A DNA stretch of 64,000 bases from Escherichia coli (GCF_001677475.2 NZ_CP015229.1); one strand, 5' to 3'. Shown: positions 1,625-53,020, counted from the stretch's first letter. The notes: generated by a model from the sequence alone, not told the origin. Program-made: numbers and translations.

Positions 1625-3213
1625 AACGAACGCCTGTCCTGATTGATGTGAACGGTGTTCCGCTTCGTGAGAGTCTCAGCTACAACGGGGGCGGCGCAGG
1701 ATTTGGCGGGCAAATGGCGGAGTGGTTGCCACCGGCGCAGAGTGCCGATGCGGCCCTGCTGCCCGCGTTGCGTCTGGGGAATGCCCGGGCAGATGATCTG
1801 GTGCGCAATAACGGAATAGCGGCTAATGCGGTTGCCCTGCATAAGGATCACATTGTCGGGCATATGTTTCTGATCAGCTACCGTCCGAACTGGCGCTGGC
1901 TGGGGATGCGGGAGACCGCAGCAAAAAGCTTTGTCGATGAGGTGGAGGCGTCCTGGTCGGAATACGCCGAAGGGATGTTTGGCGAGATCGACGTGGAAGG
2001 AAAACGCACGTTCACGGAATTTATCCGTGAAGGTGTGGGCGTTCATGCGTTTAACGGCGAAATCTTTGTGCAGCCGGTCTGGGATACGGAAACCACGCAG
2101 TTATTCCGTACGCGTTTTAAAGCTGTGAGTCCGAAACGGGTGGACACGCCTGGACACGGTATGGGGAACCGTTTTCTGCGGGCCGGTGTGGAGGTCGATC
2201 GATATGGCCGTGCCGTCGCGTACCATATCTGTGAGGATGATTTTCCGTTCTCTGGTAGTGGACGATGGGAACGGATCCCGCGTGAACTTCCCACCGGGCG
2301 TCCGGCCATGCTGCATATTTTCGAGCCGGTGGAGGACGGGCAGACCCGTGGGGCTAATCAGTTTTACAGCGTCATGGAACGGCTGAAGATGCTCGATTCC
2401 CTGCAGGCAACACAGCTTCAGTCGGCCATAGTGAAGGCGATGTATGCAGCGACGATTGAAAGTGAACTTGATACCGAAAAGGCCTTTGAATATATCGCCG
2501 GCGCGCCACAGGAGCAGAAGGATAATCCGCTTATTAATATTCTGGAGAAGTTCTCCAGCTGGTATGACACGAATAACGTGACACTGGGCGGAGTCAAAAT
2601 TCCGCACCTTTTCCCTGGTGATGATCTGAAACTACAGACTGCGCAGGATTCAGACAATGGATTTTCTGCACTTGAACAGGCGCTGCTGCGGTATATCGCC
2701 GCCGGTCTTGGCGTTTCCTACGAACAGTTGTCCCGTGATTACTCGAAGGTCAGTTACTCAAGTGCCCGCGCCTCCGCCAATGAGTCGTGGCGCTATTTTA
2801 TGGGGCGGCGAAAATTTATTGCGGCCCGGCTGGCCACGCAGATGTTTTCCTGCTGGCTGGAAGAGGCACTTCTTCGGGGGATTATTCGTCCGCCACGGGC
2901 ACGTTTTGATTTTTATCAGGCGCGATCAGCCTGGTCACGGGCAGAGTGGATTGGTGCCGGAAGAATGGCCATTGACGGGCTCAAGGAAGTCCAGGAATCA
3001 GTGATGCGCATTGAGGCCGGACTGAGCACGTATGAGAAAGAGCTGGCGCTAATGGGCGAGGATTATCAGGACATTTTCCGCCAGCAGGTCAGGGAATCTG
3101 CAGAGCGGCAAAAAGCCGGACTCTCACGTCCGGTGTGGATATCGCAGGCGTATCAGCAGCAGATAGCGGAGAGTCGCAGGCCGGAAGAGGAGACAACACC
3201 ACGTGAGACGTAA
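1621..3213 (+). CDS. Portal protein (lambda gpB-like)
   Basis: 530 aa ORF, ATGA overlap with the preceding gene, lambda B position and size. Confidence 0.9.
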   Translation: MKRTPVLIDVNGVPLRESLSYNGGGAGFGGQMAEWLPPAQSADAALLPALRLGNARADDLVRNNGIAANAVALHKDHIVGHMFLISYRPNWRWLGMRETAAKSFVDEVEASWSEYAEGMFGEIDVEGKRTFTEFIREGVGVHAFNGEIFVQPVWDTETTQLFRTRFKAVSPKRVDTPGHGMGNRFLRAGVEVDRYGRAVAYHICEDDFPFSGSGRWERIPRELPTGRPAMLHIFEPVEDGQTRGANQFYSVMERLKMLDSLQATQLQSAIVKAMYAATIESELDTEKAFEYIAGAPQEQKDNPLINILEKFSSWYDTNNVTLGGVKIPHLFPGDDLKLQTAQDSDNGFSALEQALLRYIAAGLGVSYEQLSRDYSKVSYSSARASANESWRYFMGRRKFIAARLATQMFSCWLEEALLRGIIRPPRARFDFYQARSAWSRAEWIGAGRMAIDGLKEVQESVMRIEAGLSTYEKELALMGEDYQDIFRQQVRESAERQKAGLSRPVWISQAYQQQIAESRRPEEETTPRET

Positions 3214-4708
3214 TCTTTCACACATTATTGCCGCAGCATTCAATGAACCGCTGCTTCTGGAGCCCGCCTATGCGCGGGTTTTCTTTTGCGCGCTCGGGCG
3301 CGAGATGGGGGCAGCAAGTCTTTCGGTACCACAACAACAGGTACAGCTTGATGCTCCCGGAATGCTGGCTGAAACGGACGAGTATATGGCCGGAGGTAAA
3401 CGACCGGCCCGTGTTTACCGGGTGGTGAACGGTATTGCTGTACTGCCGGTGACCGGCACGCTGGTGCACCGGCTGGGTGGTATGCGGCCATTTTCCGGAA
3501 TGACAGGCTATGACGGCATTGTCGCCTGTCTTCAGCAGGCAATGGCGGATAGCCAGGTGCGGGGCGTACTGCTGGACATTGACAGTCCGGGCGGGCAGGC
3601 CGCCGGCGCGTTTGACTGCGCTGACATGATTTACCGCCTCCGTCAGCAGAAGCCGGTCTGGGCACTGTGCAATGACACGGCCTGTTCTGCAGCCATGCTG
3701 CTGGCGTCGGCCTGCTCCCGACGGCTGGTTACCCAGACATCCCGTATCGGCTCCATTGGCGTGATGATGAGCCATGTCAGCTATGCCGGTCATCTGGCGC
3801 AGGCCGGTGTGGATATCACGCTGATTTACTCAGGGGCGCACAAGGTGGATGGCAATCAGTTTGAAGCGTTGCCGGCAGAGGTTCGCCAGGACATGCAGCA
3901 GCGGATTGATGCGGCGCGCCGGATGTTTGCCGAAAAAGTGGCGATGTATACCGGTCTGTCTGTTGATGCCATCACGGGAACAGAGGCTGCCGTTTTTGAA
4001 GGTCAGTCCGGCATTGAGGCCGGGCTGGCGGATGAATTAATCAATGCGTCGGATGCCATCAGTGTGATGGCCACGGCGCTGAACAGTAATGTCAGAGGAG
4101 GCACTATGCCGCAATTAACTGCAACGGAAGCCGCCGCGCAGGAGAACCAGCGAGTGATGGGGAGCCTGACATGCCAGGAAGCGAAAGGACGTGAACAGCT
4201 TGCCACGATGCTGGCAGGACAACAGGGCATGAGCGTTGAACAGGCCCGGGCGATTCTGGCCGCGGCGGCACCGCAGCAGCCGGTGGCATCCACGCAGAGT
4301 GAAGCCGATCGCATTATGGCGTGTGAAGAAGCGAACGGTCGTGAACAACTGGCGGCAACGCTGGCGGCGATGCCGGAGATGACGGTGGAAAAAGCCCGCC
4401 CGATCCTGGCTGCTTCACCGCAGGCGGATGCCGGACCATCACTCCGTGATCAGATCATGGCACTGGATGAGGCAAAAGGGGCTGAGGCGCAGGCTGAACA
4501 GCTGGCTGCCTGCCCGGGAATGACAGTGGAGAGCGCCCGGGCTGTGCTGGCTGCGGGATCAGGTAAGGCAGAACCGGTCTCTGCATCCACAACCGCCATG
4601 TTTGAACATTTCATGGCGAACCATTCACCGGCAGCGGTACAGGGTGGCGTGGCACAGACGTCAGCAGACGGTGATGCGGACGTGAAAATGCTCATGGCCA
4701 TGCCATGA
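3203..4708 (+). CDS. Capsid assembly protease C with nested scaffold (Nu3-like) C-terminal region; S49/ClpP-like peptidase
   Basis: 501 aa; N-terminal half has S49 protease-like motifs (DSPGG, SAA), C-terminal half is Ala/Gln-rich scaffold-like with three tandem repeats. Confidence 0.85.
   Translation: MRRNLSHIIAAAFNEPLLLEPAYARVFFCALGREMGAASLSVPQQQVQLDAPGMLAETDEYMAGGKRPARVYRVVNGIAVLPVTGTLVHRLGGMRPFSGMTGYDGIVACLQQAMADSQVRGVLLDIDSPGGQAAGAFDCADMIYRLRQQKPVWALCNDTACSAAMLLASACSRRLVTQTSRIGSIGVMMSHVSYAGHLAQAGVDITLIYSGAHKVDGNQFEALPAEVRQDMQQRIDAARRMFAEKVAMYTGLSVDAITGTEAAVFEGQSGIEAGLADELINASDAISVMATALNSNVRGGTMPQLTATEAAAQENQRVMGSLTCQEAKGREQLATMLAGQQGMSVEQARAILAAAAPQQPVASTQSEADRIMACEEANGREQLAATLAAMPEMTVEKARPILAASPQADAGPSLRDQIMALDEAKGAEAQAEQLAACPGMTVESARAVLAAGSGKAEPVSASTTAMFEHFMANHSPAAVQGGVAQTSADGDADVKMLMAMP
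4165..4555. repeat. Three tandem ~40-45 codon in-frame repeats inside the C/Nu3 scaffold region
   Basis: Repeated peptide unit (QEAKGREQLATMLA...VEQARAILAA / EEANGREQLAATLA...VEKARPILAA / DEAKGAEAQAEQLA...VESARAVLAA) read in the ORF translation. Confidence 0.5.
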
Positions 4709-9534: not shown

Positions 9535-12088
9535 ACCGGTAGGCGATCTGGTCGTTGATTTGAGTCTGGATGCGGCCAGATTTGACGAGCAGATGGCCAG
9601 AGTCAGGCGTCATTTTTCCGGTACGGAAAGTGATGCGAAAAAAACAGCGGCAGTCGTTGAACAGTCGCTGAGCCGACAGGTGCTGGCTGCACAGAAAGCG
9701 GGGATTTCCGTCGGGCAGTATAAAGCCGCCATGCGTATGCTGCCTGCACAGTTCACCGACGTGGCCACGCAGCTTGCAGGCGGGCAAAGTCCGTGGCTGA
9801 TCCTGCTGCAACAGGGGGGGCAGGTGAAGGACTCCTTCGGCGGGATGATCCCCATGTTCAGGGGGCTTGCCGGTGCGATCACTCTGCCGATGGTCGGGGC
9901 CACCTCGCTGGCGGTGGCGACCGGTGCGCTGGCGTATGCCTGGTATCAGGGCAACTCAACCCTGTCCGATTTCAACAAAACGCTGGTCCTTTCCGGCAAT
10001 CAGGCGGGACTGACGGCAGATCGTATGCTGGTCCTGTCCAGAGCCGGGCAGGCGGCAGGGCTGACGTTTAACCAGACCAGCGAGTCACTCAGCGCACTGG
10101 TTAAGGCGGGGGTAAGCGGTGAGGCTCAGATTGCGTCCATCAGCCAGAGTGTGGCGCGTTTCTCCTCTGCATCCGGCGTGGAGGTGGACAAGGTCGCTGA
10201 AGCCTTCGGGAAGCTGACCACAGACCCGACGTCGGGGCTGACGGCGATGGCACGCCAGTTCCATAACGTGACGGCGGAGCAGATTGCGTATGTTGCTCAG
10301 TTGCAGCGTTCCGGCGATGAAGCCGGGGCATTGCAGGCGGCGAACGAGGCCGCAACGAAAGGGTTTGATGACCAGACCCGCCGCCTGAAAGAGAACATGG
10401 GCACGCTGGAGACCTGGGCAGACAGGACTGCGCGGGCATTCAAATCCATGTGGGATGCGGTGCTGGATATTGGTCGTCCTGATACCGCGCAGGAGATGCT
10501 GATTAAGGCAGAGGCTGCGTTTAAGAAAGCAGACGACATCTGGAATCTGCGCAAGGATGATTATTTTGTTAACGATGAAGCGCGGGCGCGTTACTGGGAT
10601 GATCGTGAAAAGGCCCGTCTTGCGCTTGAAGCCGCCCGAAAGAAGGCTGAGCAGCAGACTCAACAGGACAAAAATGCGCAGCAGCAGAGCGATACCGAAG
10701 CGTCACGGCTGAAATATACCGAAGAGGCGCAGAAGGCTTACGAACGGCTGCAGACGCCGCTGGAGAAATATACCGCCCGTCAGGAAGAACTGAACAAGGC
10801 ACTGAAAGACGGGAAAATCCTGCAGGCGGATTACAACACGCTGATGGCGGCGGCGAAAAAGGATTATGAAGCGACGCTGAAAAAGCCGAAACAGTCCGGC
10901 GTGAAGGTGTCTGCGGGCGATCGTCAGGAAGACAGTGCTCATGCTGCCCTGCTGACGCTTCAGGCAGAACTCCGGACGCTGGAGAAGCATGCCGGAGCGA
11001 ATGAGAAAATCAGCCAGCAGCGCCGGGATTTGTGGAAGGCAGAAAGTCAGTTCGCGGTACTGGAGGAGGCGGCACAACGTCGCCAGCTGTCCGCACAGGA
11101 GAAATCCCTGCTGGCGCATAAAGATGAGACGCTGGAGTACAAACGCCAGCTGGCTGCACTTGGCGACAAGGTTACGTATCAGGAGCGCCTGAACGCGCTG
11201 GCGCAGCAGGCGGATAAATTCGCACAGCAGCAACGGGCAAAACGGGCCGCCATTGATGCGAAAAGCCGGGGGCTGACTGACCGGCAGGCAGAACGGGAAG
11301 CCACGGAACAGCGCCTGAAGGAACAGTATGGCGATAATCCGCTGGCGCTGAATAACGTCATGTCAGAGCAGAAAAAGACCTGGGCGGCTGAAGACCAGCT
11401 TCGCGGGAGCTGGATGGCAGGCCTGAAGTCCGGCTGGAGTGAGTGGGAAGAGAGCGCCACGGACAGTATGTCGCAGGTAAAAAGTGCAGCCACGCAGACC
11501 TTTGATGGTATTGCACAGAATATGGCGGCGATGCTGACCGGCAGTGAGCAGAACTGGCGCAGCTTCACCCGTTCCGTGCTGTCCATGATGACAGAAATTC
11601 TGCTTAAGCAGGCAATGGTGGGGATTGTCGGGAGTATCGGCAGCGCCATTGGCGGGGCTGTTGGTGGCGGCGCATCCGCGTCAGGCGGTACAGCCATTCA
11701 GGCCGCTGCGGCGAAATTCCATTTTGCAACCGGAGGATTTACGGGAACCGGCGGCAAATATGAGCCAGCGGGGATTGTTCACCGTGGTGAGTTTGTCTTC
11801 ACGAAGGAGGCAACCAGCCGGATTGGCGTGGGGAATCTTTACCGGCTGATGCGCGGCTATGCCACCGGCGGTTATGTCGGTACACCGGGCAGCATGGCAG
11901 ACAGCCGGTCGCAGGCGTCCGGGACGTTTGAGCAGAATAACCATGTGGTGATTAACAACGACGGCACGAACGGGCAGATAGGTCCGGCTGCTCTGAAGAC
12001 GGTGTATGACATGGCCCGCAAGGGTGCCCGTGATGAAATTCAGACACAGATGCGTGATGGTGGCCTGTTCTCCGGAGGTGGACGATGA
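9527..12088 (+). CDS. Tail tape measure protein H-like
   Basis: 853 aa, identical in length to lambda H; coiled-coil Ala/Gln-rich middle. Confidence 0.95.
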   Translation: MAEPVGDLVVDLSLDAARFDEQMARVRRHFSGTESDAKKTAAVVEQSLSRQVLAAQKAGISVGQYKAAMRMLPAQFTDVATQLAGGQSPWLILLQQGGQVKDSFGGMIPMFRGLAGAITLPMVGATSLAVATGALAYAWYQGNSTLSDFNKTLVLSGNQAGLTADRMLVLSRAGQAAGLTFNQTSESLSALVKAGVSGEAQIASISQSVARFSSASGVEVDKVAEAFGKLTTDPTSGLTAMARQFHNVTAEQIAYVAQLQRSGDEAGALQAANEAATKGFDDQTRRLKENMGTLETWADRTARAFKSMWDAVLDIGRPDTAQEMLIKAEAAFKKADDIWNLRKDDYFVNDEARARYWDDREKARLALEAARKKAEQQTQQDKNAQQQSDTEASRLKYTEEAQKAYERLQTPLEKYTARQEELNKALKDGKILQADYNTLMAAAKKDYEATLKKPKQSGVKVSAGDRQEDSAHAALLTLQAELRTLEKHAGANEKISQQRRDLWKAESQFAVLEEAAQRRQLSAQEKSLLAHKDETLEYKRQLAALGDKVTYQERLNALAQQADKFAQQQRAKRAAIDAKSRGLTDRQAEREATEQRLKEQYGDNPLALNNVMSEQKKTWAAEDQLRGSWMAGLKSGWSEWEESATDSMSQVKSAATQTFDGIAQNMAAMLTGSEQNWRSFTRSVLSMMTEILLKQAMVGIVGSIGSAIGGAVGGGASASGGTAIQAAAAKFHFATGGFTGTGGKYEPAGIVHRGEFVFTKEATSRIGVGNLYRLMRGYATGGYVGTPGSMADSRSQASGTFEQNNHVVINNDGTNGQIGPAALKTVYDMARKGARDEIQTQMRDGGLFSGGGR

Positions 12089-44465: not shown

Positions 44466-45698
44466 ATGTCGTCATTTGATTACCTGAAAACTGCCATCAA
44501 GCAACAGGGCTGCACGCTACAGCAGGTAGCTGATGCCAGCGGTATGACCAAAGGGTATTTAAGCCAGTTACTGAATGCCAAAATTAAAAGCCCCAGCGCG
44601 CAAAAGCTGGAGGCGCTGCACCGTTTTTTGGGGCTTGAATTTCCCCGGCAGAAGAAAACCATTGGTGTCGTATTCGGTAAGTTCTACCCGCTGCATACCG
44701 GACATATCTACCTTATCCAGCGCGCCTGTAGCCAGGTTGACGAGCTGCATATCATTATGGGTTTTGACGATACCCGCGACCGCGCGTTGTTTGAAGACAG
44801 CGCCATGTCGCAGCAGCCCACCGTGCCGGATCGTCTGCGCTGGTTATTGCAAACCTTTAAATATCAGAAAAATATCCGTATTCATGCTTTCAACGAAGAG
44901 GGCATGGAGCCGTATCCGCACGGCTGGGATGTGTGGAGCAACGGCATCAAAAAGTTTATGGCTGAAAAGGGGATCCAGCCGGACCTGATCTACACCTCGG
45001 AAGAAGCCGATGCGCCACAGTATATGGAACATCTGGGGATCGAAACGGTGCTGGTCGATCCGAAGCGTACCTTTATGAGTATCAGCGGTGCGCAGATCCG
45101 CGAAAACCCGTTCCGCTACTGGGAATATATTCCCACCGAAGTGAAGCCGTTCTTTGTGCGTACCGTGGCGATCCTTGGCGGTGAGTCGAGCGGTAAATCC
45201 ACCCTGGTAAACAAACTTGCTAATATCTTCAACACTACCAGTGCATGGGAATATGGTCGCGATTATGTCTTTTCACACCTTGGCGGTGATGAGATCGCAT
45301 TGCAGTATTCCGACTACGATAAAATCGCGCTGGGACACGCTCAATACATTGATTTTGCAGTGAAATATGCCAATAAAGTGGCGTTTATTGACACTGATTT
45401 TGTCACTACCCAGGCGTTTTGTAAAAAGTACGAAGGGCGTGAGCATCCGTTCGTGCAGGCGCTGATCGATGAATACCGTTTTGATCTGGTTATCTTGCTG
45501 GAGAACAACACCCCTTGGGTGGCGGATGGTTTACGCAGCCTCGGCAGTTCGGTGGATCGCAAAGAGTTCCAGAACTTGCTGGTGGAGATGCTGGAAGAGA
45601 ACAATATCGAATTTGTGCGGGTTGAAGAGGACGATTACGACAGCCGTTTCCTGCGCTGTGTGGAGCTGGTGCGGGAGATGATGGGGGAGCAGAGATAA
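44466..45698 (+). CDS. nadR: NadR: NAD biosynthesis regulator / NMN adenylyltransferase / ribosylnicotinamide kinase
   Basis: 410 aa from the internal ATG; N-terminal HTH, GKFYPLHTGH adenylyltransferase motif, Walker A GGESSGKST. Confidence 0.95.
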   Translation: MSSFDYLKTAIKQQGCTLQQVADASGMTKGYLSQLLNAKIKSPSAQKLEALHRFLGLEFPRQKKTIGVVFGKFYPLHTGHIYLIQRACSQVDELHIIMGFDDTRDRALFEDSAMSQQPTVPDRLRWLLQTFKYQKNIRIHAFNEEGMEPYPHGWDVWSNGIKKFMAEKGIQPDLIYTSEEADAPQYMEHLGIETVLVDPKRTFMSISGAQIRENPFRYWEYIPTEVKPFFVRTVAILGGESSGKSTLVNKLANIFNTTSAWEYGRDYVFSHLGGDEIALQYSDYDKIALGHAQYIDFAVKYANKVAFIDTDFVTTQAFCKKYEGREHPFVQALIDEYRFDLVILLENNTPWVADGLRSLGSSVDRKEFQNLLVEMLEENNIEFVRVEEDDYDSRFLRCVELVREMMGEQR

Positions 45699-45789: not shown

Positions 45790-46122
45790 ATGGGCAAGGC
45801 GATAATATTTATAGAGACGCCAATGTTTACGCGTCAGATCAAGCAGATTGCAACCGATGATGAATTAAAGGAATTACAAAAAGAACTCATCGGAACTCCC
45901 GATAAAGGTGATCTCATTCAGCAGACTGGTGGATTGCGTAAAGTCCGAATGGCTGCGGGTTCACAGGGAAAAAGTGGCAGTGTCAGAATAATTTACTTTC
46001 TGGCGACGGAAGAGATTATTTATTTGATTATGGCCTATCCGAAAAATGCCAAAGATAGTCTGACAGATACGGAAAAAGCTCAACTAAAGAAGTTGACGAA
46101 ACTGCTCAAAGGCGAGGTATAA
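45790..46122 (+). CDS. RelE/ParE-superfamily toxin, HigB-2 / Gp49-like
   Basis: 110 aa; GTGGLRK-V/I-R ... GKSGS-RIIYF ... AYPKN...LT core matches HigB-2-type toxins as I recall them; toxin-first gene order. Confidence 0.65.
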   Translation: MGKAIIFIETPMFTRQIKQIATDDELKELQKELIGTPDKGDLIQQTGGLRKVRMAAGSQGKSGSVRIIYFLATEEIIYLIMAYPKNAKDSLTDTEKAQLKKLTKLLKGEV

Positions 46123-46123
46123 A

Positions 46124-46408
46124 ATGAGTTTTTTTGATGAGTTGAAAACCTCTCTGGAAGAGGCTGTCGAGATTAAACAAGGTTTAAAAGAACCTGCACG
46201 GGTGACCCGCTACGAAATTGCGGATGTTAAAGCTATTCGTGAGCAACTCAACGTTTCTCAAAGTGAGATGGCAAAAGCTCTGGGAACCAGTGTGGATACC
46301 ATTAAAAGCTGGGAATCGAAGCGAAGAAATCCTACGGGATTGGCTGCAAAAGTACTTGCCACAATTAAAGAAAATCCTGCCTTTTTCCGGGAACTTGCCT
46401 CCCATTAA
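46124..46408 (+). CDS. XRE-family HTH antitoxin, HigA-2-like
   Basis: 94 aa; starts 1 nt after the toxin stop; C-terminal HTH LNVSQSEMAKALGTSVDTIKSWESKRRNPTG. Confidence 0.65.
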   Translation: MSFFDELKTSLEEAVEIKQGLKEPARVTRYEIADVKAIREQLNVSQSEMAKALGTSVDTIKSWESKRRNPTGLAAKVLATIKENPAFFRELASH

Positions 46409-47224
46409 TCATTTAACTAATACCGGATGCGATGCTGGCGCGCCGCACCCGGCATTTTACGCATTACTTCGCAATACGCTTGTACTTGATACGCTTCGGC
46501 TCCAGCGCGTTTGCGCCCAGCGTGCGTTTTTTGTACTCTTCGTACTCGGTAAAGTTACCTTCGAAGAACTCAACTTTACCTTCATCCTGGTAGTCCAGGA
46601 CGTGGGTGGCGATATGGTCGAGGAACCAACGGTCGTGCGAGATAACCATCGCGCAGCCCGGGAACTCCAGCAGGGCGTTTTCCAGCGCGCGCAGGGTTTC
46701 GATATTCAGGTCGTTAGTTGGTTCGTCGAGCAGCAGCATGTTGCCGCCAACCTGCAGCAGCTTCGCCAGATGCAGACGACCGCGCTCACCACCGGAAAGT
46801 TCACCAACGCGTTTACCTTAAAGTTAAAGCGGCCAACGTAGGCGCGGCTTGGCATCTCGGTGTTGCCGATCTTCATGATATCCAGCCCGCCGGAAACTTC
46901 TTCCCAAACGGTTTTGCGGTTATCCATTGAGTCACGGAACTGATCAACCGATGCCAGTTTCACCGTTTCACCCAGAGTGATAGTGCCGCTGTCCGGCTGT
47001 TCCTGACCAGAGATCATACGGAACAACGTCGATTTGCCCGTACCGTTCGGACCGATGATCCCGACGATCGCTCCTTTCGGGATCGAGAAGCTCAGGGAGT
47101 CAATCAGCAGACGATCGCCATAGGATTTACGCAGGTTGCTGACTTCCAGCACTTTGTCGCCCAGACACGGTCCAGGTGGAATAAACAGTTCGTTGGTTTC
47201 GTTGCGTTTCTGATATTCGGTGCT
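46371..47224. repeat. Direct repeat copy 1 (~855 bp): antitoxin 3' end plus a decayed ettA 3' third
   Basis: About 95 percent identical to 51271-52126, with small deletions (for example ~14 bp near 46815) and scattered substitutions. Confidence 0.85.
46464..47224 (-). pseudogene. ettA 3'-terminal fragment (second ABC-F ATPase domain), frameshifted
   Basis: ORFs 46464..46739 and 46706..47152 together are collinear with the C-terminal ~250 aa of EttA but in two frames, with several substitutions relative to the intact copy. Confidence 0.85.
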
Positions 47225-47302
47225 TCATACTCCAACCGACCAGTTGCGTAGCCAGAATGCAATCAAATCTGACAGTCCGCTTCTGCGCGCGCTTTGGTCT
47301 AT

Positions 47303-47488
47303 TTACCGGAGTAAATCAGCGGGCCGTGGAAAATTATGCGCAGCGCTTCTGCTGATTTGCGTACCTTCGCTGATGATAAGTCCTGCACTAGCGCGCTGCG
47401 CGTAATAGTTCGCCATCATGTCAGTCGCAACGTCACCCGCACGGGAACGTGTCATCGGTGGCATTACAATACGGTTTTTTAATGGCAA
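47303..47488 (-). pseudogene. Old-yellow-enzyme family NADH:flavin oxidoreductase, N-terminal remnant
   Basis: 61 aa fragment PLKNRIVMPPMTRSRAGD...YYAQRASAGLIISEGTQIS is the conserved OYE N-terminal block; in-frame stop 9 codons upstream and no continuation. Confidence 0.5.
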
Positions 47489-47536
47489 CGCATTCAGCGC
47501 ATATTTAGCAAATTACGTAATGGGTCCCTTGCGCGG

Positions 47537-47749
47537 TTATTTGTACAGTTCGGCACTCATGGTGACGGTATTGCCCATGCGAGCGCTGGTGATTTTGTAT
47601 TCAGAGGCGTTTATCTCTTTCGCTTTCTGCGCAATAACCGCTTCAGCGGAATCCAGTGTTGTACCGGTTGCTGTCACGCTTTGCGCCGATGCGTTAAACG
47701 CCGCGACAGAGAAAAGAGAAGCTGTAAAAATTGCGATGATCGTTTTCAT
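47537..47749 (-). CDS. DUF1471 (YdgH/BhsA/McbA-like) small secreted protein
   Basis: 70 aa from the internal ATG; signal peptide MKTIIAIFTASLFSVAAFNASA; C-terminal ITSA...YK pattern of the family. Confidence 0.7.
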   Translation of the reverse strand: MKTIIAIFTASLFSVAAFNASAQSVTATGTTLDSAEAVIAQKAKEINASEYKITSARMGNTVTMSAELYK

Positions 47750-47906
47750 GTTTATATTCCAGAGTGTCTTAATTGTTTGGCGTTTATTAACGCGATGGGA
47801 AGAGAATACGCCTGCTGCCTGATAACATAAATGATACAAATGACAATAGACTATTCTGTTTTTGTTAATAATCAGACGCCGGACGTTCCGACGCCTGTCG
47901 ATCGCA

Positions 47907-48323
47907 TCAGGCAACAAAGTTGTCCTTCAGCGCCTTGAGACCATCCCGATAAATGCCGGTAAACAGCGCCTCGGCCTCTTCGTTCGTCACATTCACCGGG
48001 GTGAATTCACCGAACCATTCCACACGGGAAACCTGGCTGTCGGCGGTTTCATGAACGGTAATGGTGGAGAGGTAATCCACCACCGGGAACGGTGCCTGAA
48101 TAATGGAATAGGTATAACTGCGTTGACGGTTATCAAACGCTTCCAGACGTTCAACCACAGTGCCGCCGTCAGAGGTTGTCAGCGAACGAACGCGACCGCC
48201 TTCTGTCACCACGCTTTTCGGGATGAATGGCAGCCAGTCTGGCAGCGCATCAAAGCCGCCCATCAATTGCCATACTGCGTCGGCAGAAGCCGGAATTTCG
48301 ATCGATACAGTTGTTTTAGCCAT
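47907..48323 (-). CDS. SRPBCC-family (Bet v1-like / polyketide cyclase-like) protein
   Basis: 138 aa; size and secondary-structure pattern of SRPBCC ligand-binding proteins; co-directional with the reductase genes. Confidence 0.6.
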   Translation of the reverse strand: MAKTTVSIEIPASADAVWQLMGGFDALPDWLPFIPKSVVTEGGRVRSLTTSDGGTVVERLEAFDNRQRSYTYSIIQAPFPVVDYLSTITVHETADSQVSRVEWFGEFTPVNVTNEEAEALFTGIYRDGLKALKDNFVA

Positions 48324-48348
48324 GATAATTTTCTCTTAATTTGTAGGG

Positions 48349-49146
48349 TTACATTGTCAGGGTGTCGACGACGCCGCCATCGACGCGCAGGGCTGCCCCT
48401 GTGGTTGCCGAGGAAAGCGGTGACGCGAGATAAACCGCCAGATTCGCCACTTCTTCCACATCCGCCGCACGCTGGATGATGGAGCTCGGACGCGAGGTTT
48501 TAACAAACTCATCGGCCTGTTCACGCGCACTGCGCCCCGATTGTGCAGCGGCATCCGCCAGCATCTCTTTCAGGCCATCGGTAAAGGTTGGCCCTGGCAG
48601 AATGGCGTTGACGGTCACACCGGTCCCTGCCAGTCGTTTCGCCAGACCATGAGAAACCGCCAGATTCGCGGCTTTGGTGACGCCGTAGTTGATCATGTCG
48701 CCAGGGATTGCCACGCCGGATTCAGACGAGACAAAGATAATCCGCCCCCAGCCCTGTTTCGTCATGCCTGGCGCATAGTGACGCGCCAGACGAACGCCGG
48801 AGAGGACGTTGACGTTATAGAAGTGCATCCACTCATCATCCGGAACGCTAAAGAAATCTTTATCGTTAAAAATGCCCAGATTATTGACCAGCACATCAGC
48901 CGTTGGGACTGCAGCGATCAGCGCAGCCACGCCGTCTTCGGTGCTGAGATCGGCCACCACGCCGCGCAGTGACGCCGTGGGAGTTTGTGCCGCAATCGCA
49001 GCCATGGCATCATCAACGCCGCGCTGTTTACGGCCGACGACAACCACCGTTGCGCCTGCTTTTGCCAGTCCGGCGGCGATACCCTGCCCAATGCCGGAGG
49101 TTGAGCCGCTGACCACCGCGACTTTACCTGTCAGATCCAGTTTCAT
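48349..49146 (-). CDS. Short-chain dehydrogenase/reductase (SDR) family oxidoreductase
   Basis: 265 aa from the internal ATG MKLDLTGKVAVVSGSTSGIGQG (TGxxxGxG cofactor motif); NNLG motif. Confidence 0.85.
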   Translation of the reverse strand: MKLDLTGKVAVVSGSTSGIGQGIAAGLAKAGATVVVVGRKQRGVDDAMAAIAAQTPTASLRGVVADLSTEDGVAALIAAVPTADVLVNNLGIFNDKDFFSVPDDEWMHFYNVNVLSGVRLARHYAPGMTKQGWGRIIFVSSESGVAIPGDMINYGVTKAANLAVSHGLAKRLAGTGVTVNAILPGPTFTDGLKEMLADAAAQSGRSAREQADEFVKTSRPSSIIQRAADVEEVANLAVYLASPLSSATTGAALRVDGGVVDTLTM

Positions 49147-49165
49147 CGTTTTCTCACCAGGTTGA

Positions 49166-50176
49166 TTAACGGGTCGGCAGCGGAGCGTTTTCCGCAACCA
49201 GATTTTGACGGCGCATTTCTGCCCAGAATTCAGCCGGAACAGGCGCATTCAGTGCAGCCAGATCTTCTGCCATACGGCCAGGACGGCTGGAGCCAGGAAT
49301 AACCGCTGCAACGGCCGGGTTTGCCAGCGCGAACTGCAGCGCAGCTGCTTTAACGTTCACATTGAAACGTGTGGCAATGGCGTTAATTTGCGCCACTTTC
49401 TGCTGGATGGCCGCAGAGGCTTTCTGATATTCAAAGTGCTCGCCGCCTGCCAGTACGCCAGAGCTGTATGGACCGCCCACAACGATATCCACGTTCTGTT
49501 CCAGTGCTTCTGGCATCAGGCGTTGCAGCGCACGTTCGTGATCCAGCAGGGAATAACGCCCCGCCAGCAGGAAAGCATCTGGCTTCGGTTCGTCCAGCGC
49601 CAGCGTCAGTTCGCAAGGTTCGACGCGGTTCACACCTAGTCCCCAGGCTTTAATCACACCTTCGTCACGCAAACGTGTCAGTGCACGAAACGCACCGGTA
49701 CGGGCAATGTTGAACTGCTCCAGCCAGCTGTCACCGTAGAAGTCCTGCGCCGGGTCGTGGATCCAGACAATGTCCAGACGGTCTGTTTTCAGGCGTTTCA
49801 GGCTGTCTTCAATCGAGCGCAGCGTGGCGTCAGCAGAGTAGTCATTCAGAATTTTGTTTTTCAGGCCGTGTTCGAACAGGCCACCTTTTTCACCGAAATC
49901 CCGTTTTGCCGGATCTTCCATTTCGTCCAGCATGATGCGACCGACTTTGCTACTCAGAACGTATTCATCGCGTGGATACTGAGACAGCGCTTCACCCATG
50001 CGGATTTCAGAAAGGCCAGAGCCGTACAGCGGCGCGGTATCAAAGTAACGCACACCCAGGTTCCAGGCTTCGCTCACGGTGGCGTGGGCCTCTTCTTCCG
50101 GAATGGCACGGAACATGTTGCCGAGTGGTGCGCCGCCTAAGCCAATTTTGCCGGGGAGTAAATTTTTAATGCTCAT
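49166..50176 (-). CDS. Aldo-keto reductase family oxidoreductase
   Basis: 336 aa; AKR motifs (G.G...G, FDTAPLYG, IPGSSRP). Confidence 0.85.
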   Translation of the reverse strand: MSIKNLLPGKIGLGGAPLGNMFRAIPEEEAHATVSEAWNLGVRYFDTAPLYGSGLSEIRMGEALSQYPRDEYVLSSKVGRIMLDEMEDPAKRDFGEKGGLFEHGLKNKILNDYSADATLRSIEDSLKRLKTDRLDIVWIHDPAQDFYGDSWLEQFNIARTGAFRALTRLRDEGVIKAWGLGVNRVEPCELTLALDEPKPDAFLLAGRYSLLDHERALQRLMPEALEQNVDIVVGGPYSSGVLAGGEHFEYQKASAAIQQKVAQINAIATRFNVNVKAAALQFALANPAVAAVIPGSSRPGRMAEDLAALNAPVPAEFWAEMRRQNLVAENAPLPTR

Positions 50177-50309
50177 AAGATGTCCTCAATTATTCGGTTT
50201 GGGTTTGGGCGTTTTTTTGCTATCGCCCTGTGACGTGGATCACAATACCTTGCGAGGTTGTGACTTGATAGGACATAATTCGTCTGACTTAAGTCCTTTG
50301 AGGTCTAAC

Positions 50310-51197
50310 ATGATTGATTTACGCCAACTGAAGTACTTCGTGGTGGTCGCAGAAGAAGAGCACGTAGGACGCGCAGCCGAGCGATTACATATCTCGCAAT
50401 CGCCGCTGAGCCGCCAGATTGCACAACTGGAAGAACGGCTGGGGCTGACGCTGTTTGAGCGTAATCAGCAGCGCATTCGCCTGACCGCTGATGGACAGAC
50501 ATTCCTTGCCGAAACACGTTCGTTGCTGACACACGCCAACCGCCTGGAGTCGTTAGGCAAACGCCTGGGACGGGGGGAAGATGGTGGCTTGTGTATTGGC
50601 TATATCGAAAACGCCATGCATTCCGGTGTGCTTTCTACGGCGCTACGTACGTTACGTGTATCGCGTCCGAATGTGCATATCGCACTTTACAGCCAACCAC
50701 CGGCTACCCAGATTGAAGGCCTGCGCCAACGCAGTCTCGATTTTTCTCTGGTCGATACGCCGCCCACCGACAGCGAGCAGGATCTGGAATATATTCAGGT
50801 TCTGGATGATCGAATGTTGTTGGCCTTACCGCAAAATCATCCTCTGGCGCAGGAGGAAAATCTTGTTGCGTCACAACTTGGCGATGAGCAGTGGATTGCG
50901 GTGATTCATAACGACGATGCGCATTCTCGCGATCATTTTGTCGCCGCCTGTGTTAACGCCGGGTTTAATCCTGATATTCGCCTGGAAGCGGGTGAACCCC
51001 TCACGGCATTAGGTCTGGTCGCTGCGGGATTAGGTCTGGCCTTAATTCAAAATAGTCTGCGTCATAATGCGCCGGAAGGGGTGGTATTACGTGAATTGCC
51101 GTGGATGAATTATTCAACGCAATTATGGGCAGCCTGGCATAAAGCCAACCAACGTCCGCTGGTTTCCCATTTCCGCCAGATCCTGCGCGGTGAATAA
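50310..51197 (+). CDS. LysR-family transcriptional regulator, divergent from the AKR/SDR genes
   Basis: 295 aa from the internal ATG; N-terminal HTH LRQLKYFVVVAEEEHVGRAAERLHISQSPLSRQIAQLE; 133 bp divergent intergenic region. Confidence 0.85.
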   Translation: MIDLRQLKYFVVVAEEEHVGRAAERLHISQSPLSRQIAQLEERLGLTLFERNQQRIRLTADGQTFLAETRSLLTHANRLESLGKRLGRGEDGGLCIGYIENAMHSGVLSTALRTLRVSRPNVHIALYSQPPATQIEGLRQRSLDFSLVDTPPTDSEQDLEYIQVLDDRMLLALPQNHPLAQEENLVASQLGDEQWIAVIHNDDAHSRDHFVAACVNAGFNPDIRLEAGEPLTALGLVAAGLGLALIQNSLRHNAPEGVVLRELPWMNYSTQLWAAWHKANQRPLVSHFRQILRGE

Positions 51198-51270
51198 AAC
51201 GTTAAGCGGGAACCATGAGTTCCCGCTTGATTTGAGATGTCAGTCCGCATCTGAGCTAATACGCTTAAAG

Positions 51271-52126
51271 AAAATTTTGCTTTTTTCCGGGGACTAATCA
51301 TTTAACTAATACCGGATGCGATGCTGGCGCGCCGCATCCGGCATTTTACGCATTACTTCGCAATACGCTTGTACTTGATACGCTTCGGCTCCAGCGCGTC
51401 TGCGCCCAGCGTGCGTTTCTTGTACTCTTCGTACTCGGTAAAGTTACCTTCGAAGAACTCAACTTTACCTTCATCCTGGTAATCCAGAATGTGCGTGGCG
51501 ATACGGTCGAGGAACCAACGGTCGTGCGAGATAACCATCGCGCAGCCCGGGAACTCCAGCAGGGCGTTTTCCAGCGCGCGCAGGGTTTCGATATCCAGGT
51601 CGTTGGTTGGTTCGTCGAGCAGCAGCATGTTGCCGCCAACTTGCAGCAGCTTCGCCAGATGCAGACGACCGCGCTCACCGCCGGAGAGTTCACCAACGCG
51701 TTTACCCTGATCAACCCCTTTAAAGTTAAAGCGGCCAACGTAGGCGCGGCTTGGCATCTCGGTGTTGCCGATTTTCATGATATCCAGCCCGCCGGAAACT
51801 TCTTCCCAAACGGTTTTGCTGTTATCCATTGAGTCACGGAACTGATCAACCGATGCCAGTTTCACCGTTTCACCCAAAGTGATGGTGCCGCTGTCCGGCT
51901 GTTCCTGACCAGAGATCATACGGAACAGCGTCGATTTACCCGCACCGTTCGGACCGATGATCCCGACGATCGCCCCTTTCGGGATCGAGAAACTCAGGGA
52001 GTCAATCAGCAGACGATCGCCATAGGATTTACGCAGATTGCTGACTTCCAGCACTTTGTCGCCCAGACGCGGTCCAGGTGGAATAAACAGTTCGTTGGTT
52101 TCGTTACGTTTCTGATATTCGGTGCT
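51271..52126. repeat. Direct repeat copy 2 (~855 bp): degenerate antitoxin 3' remnant plus the intact ettA 3' third
   Basis: Partner of 46371-47224; here the ettA portion is intact and the ~40-bp antitoxin-end remnant carries a deletion. Confidence 0.85.
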
Positions 52127-53020
52127 GTTCAGTTCTTCAAAGCGCGCCAGACGTGCTTTACCTTTCGACTGACGGCCTTTAGTACCTTGACGTACCCACT
52201 CCAGCTCTTTCTCAATCGACTTACGACGCGCAGCTTCTTGTGAAGCTTCCTGCGCCAGACGCTGATCTTTCTGCTCCAGCCAGGAGGAGTAGTTACCTTC
52301 CCACGGAATACCTTCACCGCGGTCCAGTTCGAGGATCCAGCCCGCAACGTTATCGAGGAAGTAACGGTCGTGGGTAATCGCCACAACGGTGCCTTCGAAG
52401 TCGTGCAGGAAGCGTTCCAGCCAGGCCACGGATTCGGCATCCAGGTGGTTGGTCGGTTCGTCGAGCAGCAGCATGTCTGGTTTTTCCAGCAGCAGGCGGC
52501 ACAACGCCACGCGACGACGCTCACCACCGGAGAGGTTAGCGATTTTCGCGTCCCAGTCCGGCAGACGCAGCGCATCCGCCGCACGCTCCAGCTGAACGTT
52601 CAGGTTGTGACCGTCGTGAGCCTGAATGATCTCTTCCAGACGGCCTTGTTCAGCGGCCAGCTTGTCAAAATCGGCATCCGGATCGGCGTACAGTGCATAC
52701 ACTTCATCCAGGCGTTTCAGGGCGTTAACCACTTCAGAAACCGCTTCTTCAATGGACTCACGCACGGTGTGTTCCGGGTTCAGCTGCGGTTCCTGCGGCA
52801 GATAACCAATCTTGATATCCGGTTGCGGACGCGCTTCGCCTTCGATGTCTTTATCAATGCCCGCCATAATGCGCAGCAGGGTGGACTTACCCGCGCCGTT
52901 CAGACCCAGGACACCAATTTTTGCCCCAGGGAAGAAACTCAGAGAGATGTTTTTCAAAATATGACGTTTCGGCGGAACAACTTTGCCGACACGATGCATG
53001 GTATAAACGAATTGAGCCAC
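51353..53020 (-). CDS. ettA: Energy-dependent translational throttle protein EttA (ABC-F ATPase)
   Basis: 555 aa; two ABC domains with Walker A GLNGAGKST and GPNGAGKST and LSGGE signatures. Confidence 0.95.
   Translation of the reverse strand: MAQFVYTMHRVGKVVPPKRHILKNISLSFFPGAKIGVLGLNGAGKSTLLRIMAGIDKDIEGEARPQPDIKIGYLPQEPQLNPEHTVRESIEEAVSEVVNALKRLDEVYALYADPDADFDKLAAEQGRLEEIIQAHDGHNLNVQLERAADALRLPDWDAKIANLSGGERRRVALCRLLLEKPDMLLLDEPTNHLDAESVAWLERFLHDFEGTVVAITHDRYFLDNVAGWILELDRGEGIPWEGNYSSWLEQKDQRLAQEASQEAARRKSIEKELEWVRQGTKGRQSKGKARLARFEELNSTEYQKRNETNELFIPPGPRLGDKVLEVSNLRKSYGDRLLIDSLSFSIPKGAIVGIIGPNGAGKSTLFRMISGQEQPDSGTITLGETVKLASVDQFRDSMDNSKTVWEEVSGGLDIMKIGNTEMPSRAYVGRFNFKGVDQGKRVGELSGGERGRLHLAKLLQVGGNMLLLDEPTNDLDIETLRALENALLEFPGCAMVISHDRWFLDRIATHILDYQDEGKVEFFEGNFTEYEEYKKRTLGADALEPKRIKYKRIAK

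Follow-up and report, generated by a model that had tools for sequence, protein, structure and literature searches.

A probable LysR-controlled oxidoreductase module with a decayed old-yellow-enzyme gene between nadR and ettA of Escherichia coli

What kind of unit is encoded by the ~4 kb accessory islet between nadR and ettA of an Escherichia coli chromosome, and how did its last gene come to be broken? We addressed these questions in a 64,000-nucleotide stretch of E. coli DNA (GCF_001677475.2, NZ_CP015229.1; hereafter the window, from whose first letter all positions are counted). The islet (47223-51264) encodes a LysR-type transcriptional regulator (LTTR) and, divergently transcribed from it, an aldo-keto reductase (AKR), a classical short-chain dehydrogenase/reductase (SDR), an SRPBCC protein and a DUF1471 protein, followed by the remains of a gene for an old yellow enzyme (OYE). 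An earlier note on this DNA had placed these six genes and their divergent layout correctly and had recognized the locus as an islet; its left limit (47228) is within 5 bp of the true border and its right limit (51197) is the lysR stop. The account that we consider probable is that a LysR-run AKR-SDR-SRPBCC module acquired a DUF1471/OYE add-on, of which the OYE decayed stepwise before a partial copy of ettA (ettA') was brought to the left border of the islet.

The OYE gene is a pseudogene (47277-47518, minus strand). Within it, a 61-residue open reading frame (ORF; 47303-47488) matches PF00724 (Oxidored_FMN; E 7.8e-10, 39 bits against a cut-off of 27) at profile positions 11-64 of 342, which bears out the family named in the earlier note. 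Lesions were mapped by alignment to the intact 365-residue gene of 'E. coli' E69, and also to the copy in E. whittamii. The start codon ATG has become ACG (47516-47518), codon 2 has changed from TTA to TAA (47513-47515), 6 bp (2 codons) are missing between 47441 and 47440, a 686-bp internal deletion between 47351 and 47350 has removed codons 59-286 and shifted the frame, and a 3' truncation has left 74 bp of the distal gene (47350-47277). Over codons 1-58 (47351-47518, minus strand), the DNA is still 97.5% identical to that of the intact E69 gene at its 5' end. The 74-bp scrap (47277-47350, minus strand), which is read out of frame, corresponds to codons 287-311 of the E69 protein and is 93% identical to positions 11519-11592 of the E69 locus (L004). 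The in-frame stop reported just upstream of the remnant is the TAA at codon 2, eight codons before the TTG of the 61-residue ORF. That ORF had been described as a 61-codon N-terminal remnant without continuation. It does belong to a pseudogene, but only ~46 of its codons are genuine OYE sequence (codons 11-58 of the intact protein minus the 2-codon deletion), and the last 15 are out-of-frame 3' scrap. The 686-bp deletion also takes out the active-site motif HGANGYL (residues 183-189 of the E69 orthologue), which we take to hold the substrate-binding pair His183/Asn186 and the proton donor Tyr188. The window OYE is therefore a family member by homology that has neither a complete TIM barrel nor an active site.

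The earlier note attributed the loss of OYE to the junction with the ettA repeat. We compared the islet across 5426 complete E. coli genomes. The segment with DUF1471 and the OYE remnant occurs in ~482 of these (~9%), including O145:H28 enterohaemorrhagic E. coli and poultry-associated lineages; the remnant is present in all 482 islet-bearing genomes, and an intact OYE is found at this place in none. Three variants were distinguished. Variant A, that of the window and of strain GF43, has an intact toxin-antitoxin pair and ettA'. In variant B (e.g., strain N3 and O145:H28 strains) the toxin gene and ettA' are missing, and a K-12-like scrap of the N-terminal part of nadS abuts the first base of the islet. 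Variant C (e.g., WP4-S18-ESBL-07) resembles B, with an extra 1.58 kb between window positions 47283 and 47281 (L003 3267-4848) that encodes a TauE/SafE-family exporter and a winged-helix (wHTH) regulator, and it keeps 55 bp more of the OYE 3' region. The start-codon loss, the codon-2 stop, the 6-bp deletion and the 686-bp deletion are common to A, B and C. The junction of ettA' with the islet was found in one of the 5426 genomes (GF43), as against 482 with the remnant, and the break in OYE (47350/47351) is ~120 bp from the end of ettA' (47224). Because the lesions are also present in variants that lack ettA', and the junction is present in just one other genome, OYE was not lost at the ettA junction. 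The comparison of variants indicates that the gene was destroyed before that junction arose, and independently of it.

The most parsimonious order of events leads from an intact OYE through the point lesions and the 686-bp deletion to a 3' truncation (variant C), then to B and finally to A. Decay would have begun with loss of the start codon, the stop at codon 2 and the loss of 6 bp, continued with the 686-bp deletion that removed His183, Asn186 and Tyr188, and ended in two successive 3' truncations. By the same parsimony, the step from C to B was a deletion at a TTC microhomology that removed the TauE and wHTH genes together with 55 bp more of OYE, and the step from B to A, the last, was the gain of the left flank that bears ettA'. 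An ettA'-bearing form ancestral to B and C was considered and set aside as less parsimonious, given that A and B share the TauE deletion, that B and C share the nadS junction, and that A occurs in 1 of 5426 genomes. This order corrects the idea that duplication of ettA killed the OYE gene.

How, then, did ettA' arrive? The pseudo-copy (46464-47224, minus strand) is left-flank context rather than islet cargo, and covers ettA codons ~299-555 with a frameshifting 13-bp deletion. It is part of an 860-bp direct repeat (46365-47224 and 51265-52126) that consists of the nadS 3' end and 761 bp of ettA. The two ettA segments are 96.9% identical (24 substitutions and the 13-bp gap, relative to 51353-52126 of the intact copy). 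The 13-bp deletion is common to the window and GF43, in which the Prokaryotic Genome Annotation Pipeline (PGAP) labels the copy 'frameshifted; incomplete'. Divergence of this extent in two independent assemblies points to an established structure rather than a recent duplication or an artefact. A recent in-situ duplication was rejected specifically, with the copies 3.1% and an indel apart and the left copies of the window and GF43 themselves differing by 1.2%.

In variants B and C, nadS is cut at codon ~42 and its last bases, GAGCAACT, are followed directly by the islet sequence TCATACTCC. In variant A, ettA' ends in GGTGCT and is followed by TCATACTCC, so the first islet base is the same in both junction types. 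The relE-nadS-ettA' left flank is contiguous with the arrangement in ~671 genomes that have the toxin-antitoxin pair and no islet (ATCC 11775, NU14, APEC O18). Variant A is best read as a hybrid of this genome type and the islet-bearing type. On one side there would have been a homologous crossover in nadR-nadS; on the other, a non-homologous tail (the rest of nadS and the 3' part of ettA) would have been ligated where homology to the islet type ends. Illegitimate joining at the end of the nadS homology would account for the shared first islet base. A circular intermediate that integrated by homology is an alternative to this hybrid origin.

If OYE was lost so early, was it ever a central part of the unit? 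A homology search did recover intact versions of the cluster: an AKR-anchored scan (one genome per species) found a full-length 365-residue OYE in the same cassette of E69 (L004 10659-11756) and of Yokenella regensburgei. An exact-sequence look-up assigned this intact protein to E. ruysiae, E. marmotae, unnamed Escherichia and a Citrobacter. A protein query with the 54-residue OYE fragment returned short fragments only, confirming the family and yielding no intact copies. The OYE of E. whittamii has a different internal deletion (~640 bp; L005 10780-10790) that is independent of the one in E. coli; a shared 686-bp deletion, as a gapped BLAST match had seemed to show, was ruled out by proper alignment. 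In Trabulsiella odontotermitis, the gene is split into two overlapping ORFs (L013 5437-6539), either by a frameshift or by a draft-assembly error. The E. whittamii deletion and the T. odontotermitis split suggest that OYE was lost repeatedly, and the stepwise decay in E. coli together with the independent deletion in E. whittamii shows that the cassette can do without its ene-reductase.

The distribution of the other genes leads to the same view of OYE. Of 80 related loci, 68 have a complete and collinear set of LysR and divergent AKR-SDR-SRPBCC genes; these belong to Enterobacterales, Acinetobacter and Pseudomonas. LysR is adjacent and divergent in 78 of the 80. Identity of the AKR to that of the window is 97% in Trabulsiella, 95% in Yokenella, 93% in Yersinia, 91% in Klebsiella/Raoultella, 87% in Serratia, 85-86% in Acinetobacter and ~76% in Pseudomonas. 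A version with LysR, AKR and SRPBCC and no SDR was found in Streptomyces sp. Ru62, in Massilia and on a metagenomic contig, and more distant AKR-SRPBCC pairs exist as well. The Streptomyces locus (L074 6984-9462) has 72% G+C throughout and encodes proteins with 74.6% (AKR), 62% (LysR) and 61% (SRPBCC) identity to those of E. coli, which by sequence comparison is unusually high conservation across phyla. DUF1471 is confined to the Enterobacterales versions, with an adjacent OYE in a few of these; most versions of the cluster have no OYE (Pseudomonas, Acinetobacter, Klebsiella, Yersinia, Serratia). The pair of DUF1471 and OYE genes of T. odontotermitis is found on the opposite side of lysR. These patterns suggest that the ancient unit is LysR with the divergent AKR-SRPBCC pair, that the SDR was inserted in Gammaproteobacteria, and that DUF1471, alone or with OYE, is an apparently separate add-on of Enterobacterales. 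In such a two-layered cluster OYE is an accessory to an accessory, and the core stays intact after its loss; on the evidence of these comparisons OYE is not a core member.

A 1397-bp contig of a metagenome-assembled genome labelled 'Collinsella sp.' (L006) is 99-100% identical to the E. coli islet over the LysR start and the AKR. Contamination during binning is almost certainly the reason.

The five remaining genes are full length, and all family calls were made at Pfam gathering cut-offs, which every gene product, including the OYE remnant, passed. The AKR (336 residues; 49166-50176, minus strand) matches PF00248 over its full length (E 8e-45, residues 10-322), and the catalytic tetrad, presumably D46, Y51, K77 and H140, is present in canonical motifs. 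The SDR (265 residues; 48349-49146, minus strand; PF13561/PF00106, E 3e-44) has the classical motifs SGSTSGIG (13-20) and NNLG (88-91) with S141, Y154 and K158; Arg39 follows strand beta-2, which we take to suggest NADP(H) as cofactor. The SRPBCC protein (Polyketide_cyc2, Bet v 1 fold; 138 residues; 47907-48323, minus strand) matches PF10604 (E 1.7e-30), its residues 1-136 covering profile positions 1-141 of 142. The DUF1471 protein (YdgH/BhsA/McbA-like; 70 residues; 47537-47749, minus strand; PF07338, E 1e-9; PGAP WP_000848792) is a small secreted protein whose N-terminus, MKTIIAIFTASLFSVAAFNASA followed by QS, reads directly as a Sec signal peptide ending at ASA/QS. It scores below every named NCBIfam equivalog cut-off, and so is a member of the family rather than BhsA, YhcN or RclB. 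The regulator (295 residues; 50310-51197, plus strand) matches HTH_1 (E 5e-24) and LysR_substrate (E 1e-38). No islet component reached an NCBIfam equivalog cut-off.

With one gene dead, variants set apart by deletions (of TauE/wHTH in A and B) and flanks full of gene scraps (nadS, relE, ettA'), the whole islet might be viewed as a functionless relic in decay, with OYE merely its most advanced casualty. The other five genes make this very improbable. They are nearly identical across ~480 genomes, and in comparisons with E69, E. whittamii, Trabulsiella, Yokenella, Yersinia and Raoultella their ratios of non-synonymous to synonymous substitution (dN/dS) are 0.03-0.17 (AKR ~0.03, LysR 0.04-0.07, SRPBCC 0.04-0.10, DUF1471 0.06-0.17), which shows strong purifying selection. 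The regulatory block described below is also intact.

Is the regulator likely to control its neighbors? The divergent regulatory region (50177-50309) is 133 bp long. It contains a sigma-70-like lysR promoter (TTGCGA-18-CATAAT; -35 at 50250-50255 and -10 at 50274-50279, plus strand), a lysR Shine-Dalgarno sequence (GAGG, 50300-50303, plus strand) and, on the minus strand, an invariant TAnnnT that is a candidate -10 element for the AKR gene (50242-50247). An imperfect dyad, GGACATAATT-N6-ACTTAAGTCC (50271-50296), overlaps the lysR -10 element and start site. The intergenic block is invariant or nearly so in 17 diverse sequences, and its degenerate pattern is present at a fixed offset in 73 of 79 homologous intergenic regions, compared with none of 15,800 shuffles. 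It is recognizable even in Streptomyces. The dyad and block occur once in the window, and no second LysR dyad was found upstream of DUF1471. The conserved block supports LysR control of the divergent operon, and the classical LTTR arrangement, in which the regulator would repress its own gene and activate the divergent one, is the best reading of the region.

The core operon is predicted from spacing: gaps of 19 bp (AKR-SDR) and 25 bp (SDR-SRPBCC) are followed by one of 157 bp between SRPBCC and DUF1471. This larger gap holds a strong hairpin with a 10-bp stem in the centroid structure (47873-47897, minus strand), 10 nt past the SRPBCC stop and followed by AUUAUU. It is possibly a weak terminator that parts DUF1471 (and OYE) from the core operon; a strict terminator scan did not call it.

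Taken together, we propose that LysR binds a conserved operator overlapping its own promoter and thereby controls the divergent AKR-SDR-SRPBCC operon. The AKR and SDR would be two NAD(P)(H)-dependent carbonyl/alcohol oxidoreductases, and the SRPBCC protein a ligand-binding or isomerase-like partner with the Bet v 1 fold. The enzymes most likely transform one specific, probably hydrophobic, small molecule that bears a carbonyl or hemiacetal group. To this, Enterobacterales would have added a downstream unit of a periplasmic, stress-type DUF1471 protein with or without a NemA-like OYE ene-reductase, and the added ene-reductase step suggests an alpha,beta-unsaturated carbonyl as substrate. We commit ourselves only to an LTTR-induced, NAD(P)(H)-dependent conversion whose substrate, a specific small compound with a carbonyl, alcohol or hemiacetal group, would be bound or isomerized by a Bet v 1-fold protein.

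A more generic role, proposed in the earlier note, is detoxification of carbonyls, quinones or electrophiles by AKR, SDR and OYE under LysR, with OYE lost in the formation of the junction with the ettA repeat. NemA detoxifies N-ethylmaleimide and quinones, the DUF1471 relatives BhsA, YhcN and RclB (to which the profile matches are weak here) are stress proteins, and reactive carbonyls are commonly reduced by AKRs and SDRs; the intact OYE is indeed NemA-like (NF007899, 396 bits against a cut-off of 403). However, OYE is missing from most versions of the module, and its lesions pre-date the ettA' junction and occur where there is none. The AKR also falls far below the methylglyoxal and dicarbonyl reductase equivalogs (YdjG 71 bits against a cut-off of 550, DkgB 38 against 327, DkgA 28 against 425, PRK10625 23 against 415) and is nearest to aldose dehydrogenases, and electrophile sensors of the NemR, YqhC or RclR type are missing. 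We regard a detoxification unit as unlikely.

The affinities of the AKR raise another option. In the PDB it comes closest to L-galactose dehydrogenases (E 2e-29 to 1e-18), its orthologues carry the automatic IMG label 'D-threo-aldose 1-dehydrogenase', and the nearest characterized relatives of the SDR are sorbose reductase, 3-hydroxybutyrate dehydrogenase and glucose 1-dehydrogenase. The AKR could accordingly be an aldose 1-dehydrogenase (of the L-fucose, L-galactose or D-arabinose type) and the SDR a polyol or hydroxy-acid dehydrogenase, together feeding a catabolic route by oxidation of a sugar or hemiacetal. One distant AKR-SRPBCC locus is beside a major facilitator superfamily (MFS) sugar transporter and a LacI regulator, but these neighbors are encoded on the opposite strand and lack conservation at other loci. 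The conserved unit includes no transporter, lactonase, dehydratase or kinase, an SRPBCC protein for hydrophobic ligands would be an odd partner in sugar metabolism, and the similarity to aldose dehydrogenases is just remote. Sugar oxidation thus seems improbable to us.

A bolder version of our own proposal is that the LysR-AKR-SRPBCC triad is a cross-phylum mobile module for one widespread small molecule, with the regulator and its operator travelling along, the SDR and DUF1471/OYE being lineage-specific, and the SRPBCC protein acting as the catalytic partner of the AKR. By analogy with the neopinone isomerase/codeinone reductase (NISO/COR) pair of poppy, SRPBCC might be a double-bond isomerase or a substrate chaperone. 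We offer this tentatively, as a conceivable but doubtful extension; if true, it would amount to a new bacterial pathway rather than generic detoxification.

Several points weigh against the account that we prefer. The conserved intergenic block includes the lysR Shine-Dalgarno sequence and -10 element, for which reason its conservation does not by itself prove an operator. The spacing of the dyad is not the T-N11-A of textbooks, and its center is near -48, not -65, counted from the inferred AKR start. Because the U-tract of the hairpin that follows SRPBCC is poor, co-transcription of DUF1471 with the core genes is possible after all. The recombination scenario for ettA' is based on parsimony and two genomes only. 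Finally, the only paper found on an orthologue (the SDR of PDB entry 8G9M) gives the natural substrate as not known (PMC10889901). A literature search on the module (by accessions, the nadR/ettA island, the domain combination and PDB codes) found nothing beyond this structure-only report. An SRPBCC-GyrI protein of Xanthomonas that came up in the literature is unrelated and has a different architecture. Among solved regulators, those nearest to LysR are the LysR-family protein 7W06, cited in an itaconate-biosensor paper, and BenM/CatM; these are not orthologous.

We next consider the setting of the islet. The backbone order radA-nadR-...-ettA-slt is of the E. coli type. The nadR stop is at 45698 and is followed directly by an intact RelE/HigB-like toxin gene (45790-46122) and an intact gene for the NadS antitoxin (46124-46408). 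At the left end of the islet, a 61-bp segment (47223-47283) is 100% identical to positions 3206-3266 of the WP4-S18-ESBL-07 locus (L003), and in variant C this segment is upstream of the TauE/SafE gene. At the right, a palindromic hairpin (AAGCGGGAAC...GTTCCCGCTT; 51204-51228, plus strand) lies just past the lysR stop; a terminator scan scored it on the minus strand, and a role as lysR terminator would need the plus strand. The right junction (51229-51352) consists of 36 bp of uncertain origin, then a degraded nadS 3' end (with an 11-bp deletion) and a REP-like (repetitive extragenic palindromic) element (together 51265-51352) up to the stop of the intact ettA (51353-53020, minus strand). A search of Rfam at E<=0.1 over 45.6-53.3 kb identified no known RNA element.

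The cassette shared by the window, E69 and E. whittamii extends from ~30 bp past the lysR stop, at the end of this hairpin, to a few bp past the OYE stop. It occupies three core-genome intervals of Escherichia (between yhiN and a DUF4011-helicase gene, between glyS and cspA, and between nadR and ettA), with sharp ends and no mobility genes. In the window, a chromosomal insertion into a degraded relE/nadS toxin-antitoxin spacer between nadR and ettA is the best explanation. There is no associated integrase, transposase or tRNA gene, with no integrase or transposase ORF within 44-54 kb, and G+C does not deviate (0.536 in the islet, 0.544-0.546 in the flanks). Att-type direct repeats are also lacking, the flanking 860-bp repeat being a gene-fragment duplication in only two genomes. 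The locus is thus not a classical integrase-mediated island, and is an islet by presence/absence polymorphism only. A plasmid origin was rejected, as a megablast search of the cargo against 72,556 plasmids matched only ettA fragments on misassigned chromosomal records. An imperfect direct repeat near both ends of the cargo, ATCTGACAGTCCGCTTCTG (47265-47285) and AGATGTCAGTCCGCATCTG (51236-51254), was spotted by eye; it may be fortuitous, or a relic of nadS-like sequence in both places.

In K-12, only the last bases of the toxin gene and the first 144 bp of nadS are retained, followed by REP elements, and the nadS scrap in variants B and C is the same as that of K-12. Comparison with the window suggests that the K-12 'nadS' ORF, for which a PIRT-Seq study reported expression evidence (2025; PMC12350097), is a truncated antitoxin gene.

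The locus is real, but as an accessory oxidoreductase islet it is ordinary, E. coli having many such small islets. Its core of LysR, AKR and SRPBCC is a tractable 'conserved unknown', unusually well conserved across phyla along with its operator and with solved structures for two of its proteins. With one regulator, one operator and two or three enzymes, the unit could lend itself to de-orphaning through a screen for inducers or substrates.

Known systems resemble parts of the islet. The E. coli nemRA-gloA operon is similar in that the intact islet OYE of E69, with 396 bits on the NemA subfamily model, is an alkene reductase like NemA, and in that both are encoded in small stress or oxidoreductase operons. 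Unlike the islet enzyme, NemA is under the TetR-type regulator NemR rather than an LTTR and has no AKR, SDR or SRPBCC partners, and the window OYE is a pseudogene without His183, Asn186 and Tyr188. The rclABC operon likewise encodes a small secreted DUF1471 protein (RclB) beside cytoplasmic redox enzymes. However, the islet DUF1471 protein scores weakly on the RclB model (29 bits against a cut-off of 100), no RclA or RclC is encoded in the islet, and the rclABC regulator RclR is of the AraC type, unlike the islet LysR. Plant L-galactose dehydrogenase and D-threo-aldose 1-dehydrogenase are the nearest solved relatives of the islet AKR and share its D-Y-K-H tetrad, but the homology is remote and the genomic context different, and they need not be orthologues. 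For the SDR, the A. baumannii protein 8G9M is an orthologue (263 residues aligned, E 5e-137; PMC10889901), and 3T4X of B. anthracis aligns over 260 residues (E 5e-70); both are known from structure only. The SRPBCC protein has full-length homologues in the PDB entries 3CNW (B. cereus 'XoxI') and 3F08 (E 4e-52 and 1e-50), which come from structural genomics; the name XoxI/MxaD is an annotation carry-over.

The combination of folds has a parallel in enone chemistry. Poppy has codeinone reductase and neopinone isomerase, and P. putida M10 has morphine dehydrogenase and morphinone reductase, so that in these systems cyclic allylic alcohol/enone substrates are handled by AKR, Bet v 1 and OYE folds. 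These pathways differ from that of the islet, as do the organisms, and the likeness that we draw is one of folds. As an analogy only, it suggests how AKR, SRPBCC and OYE could cooperate.

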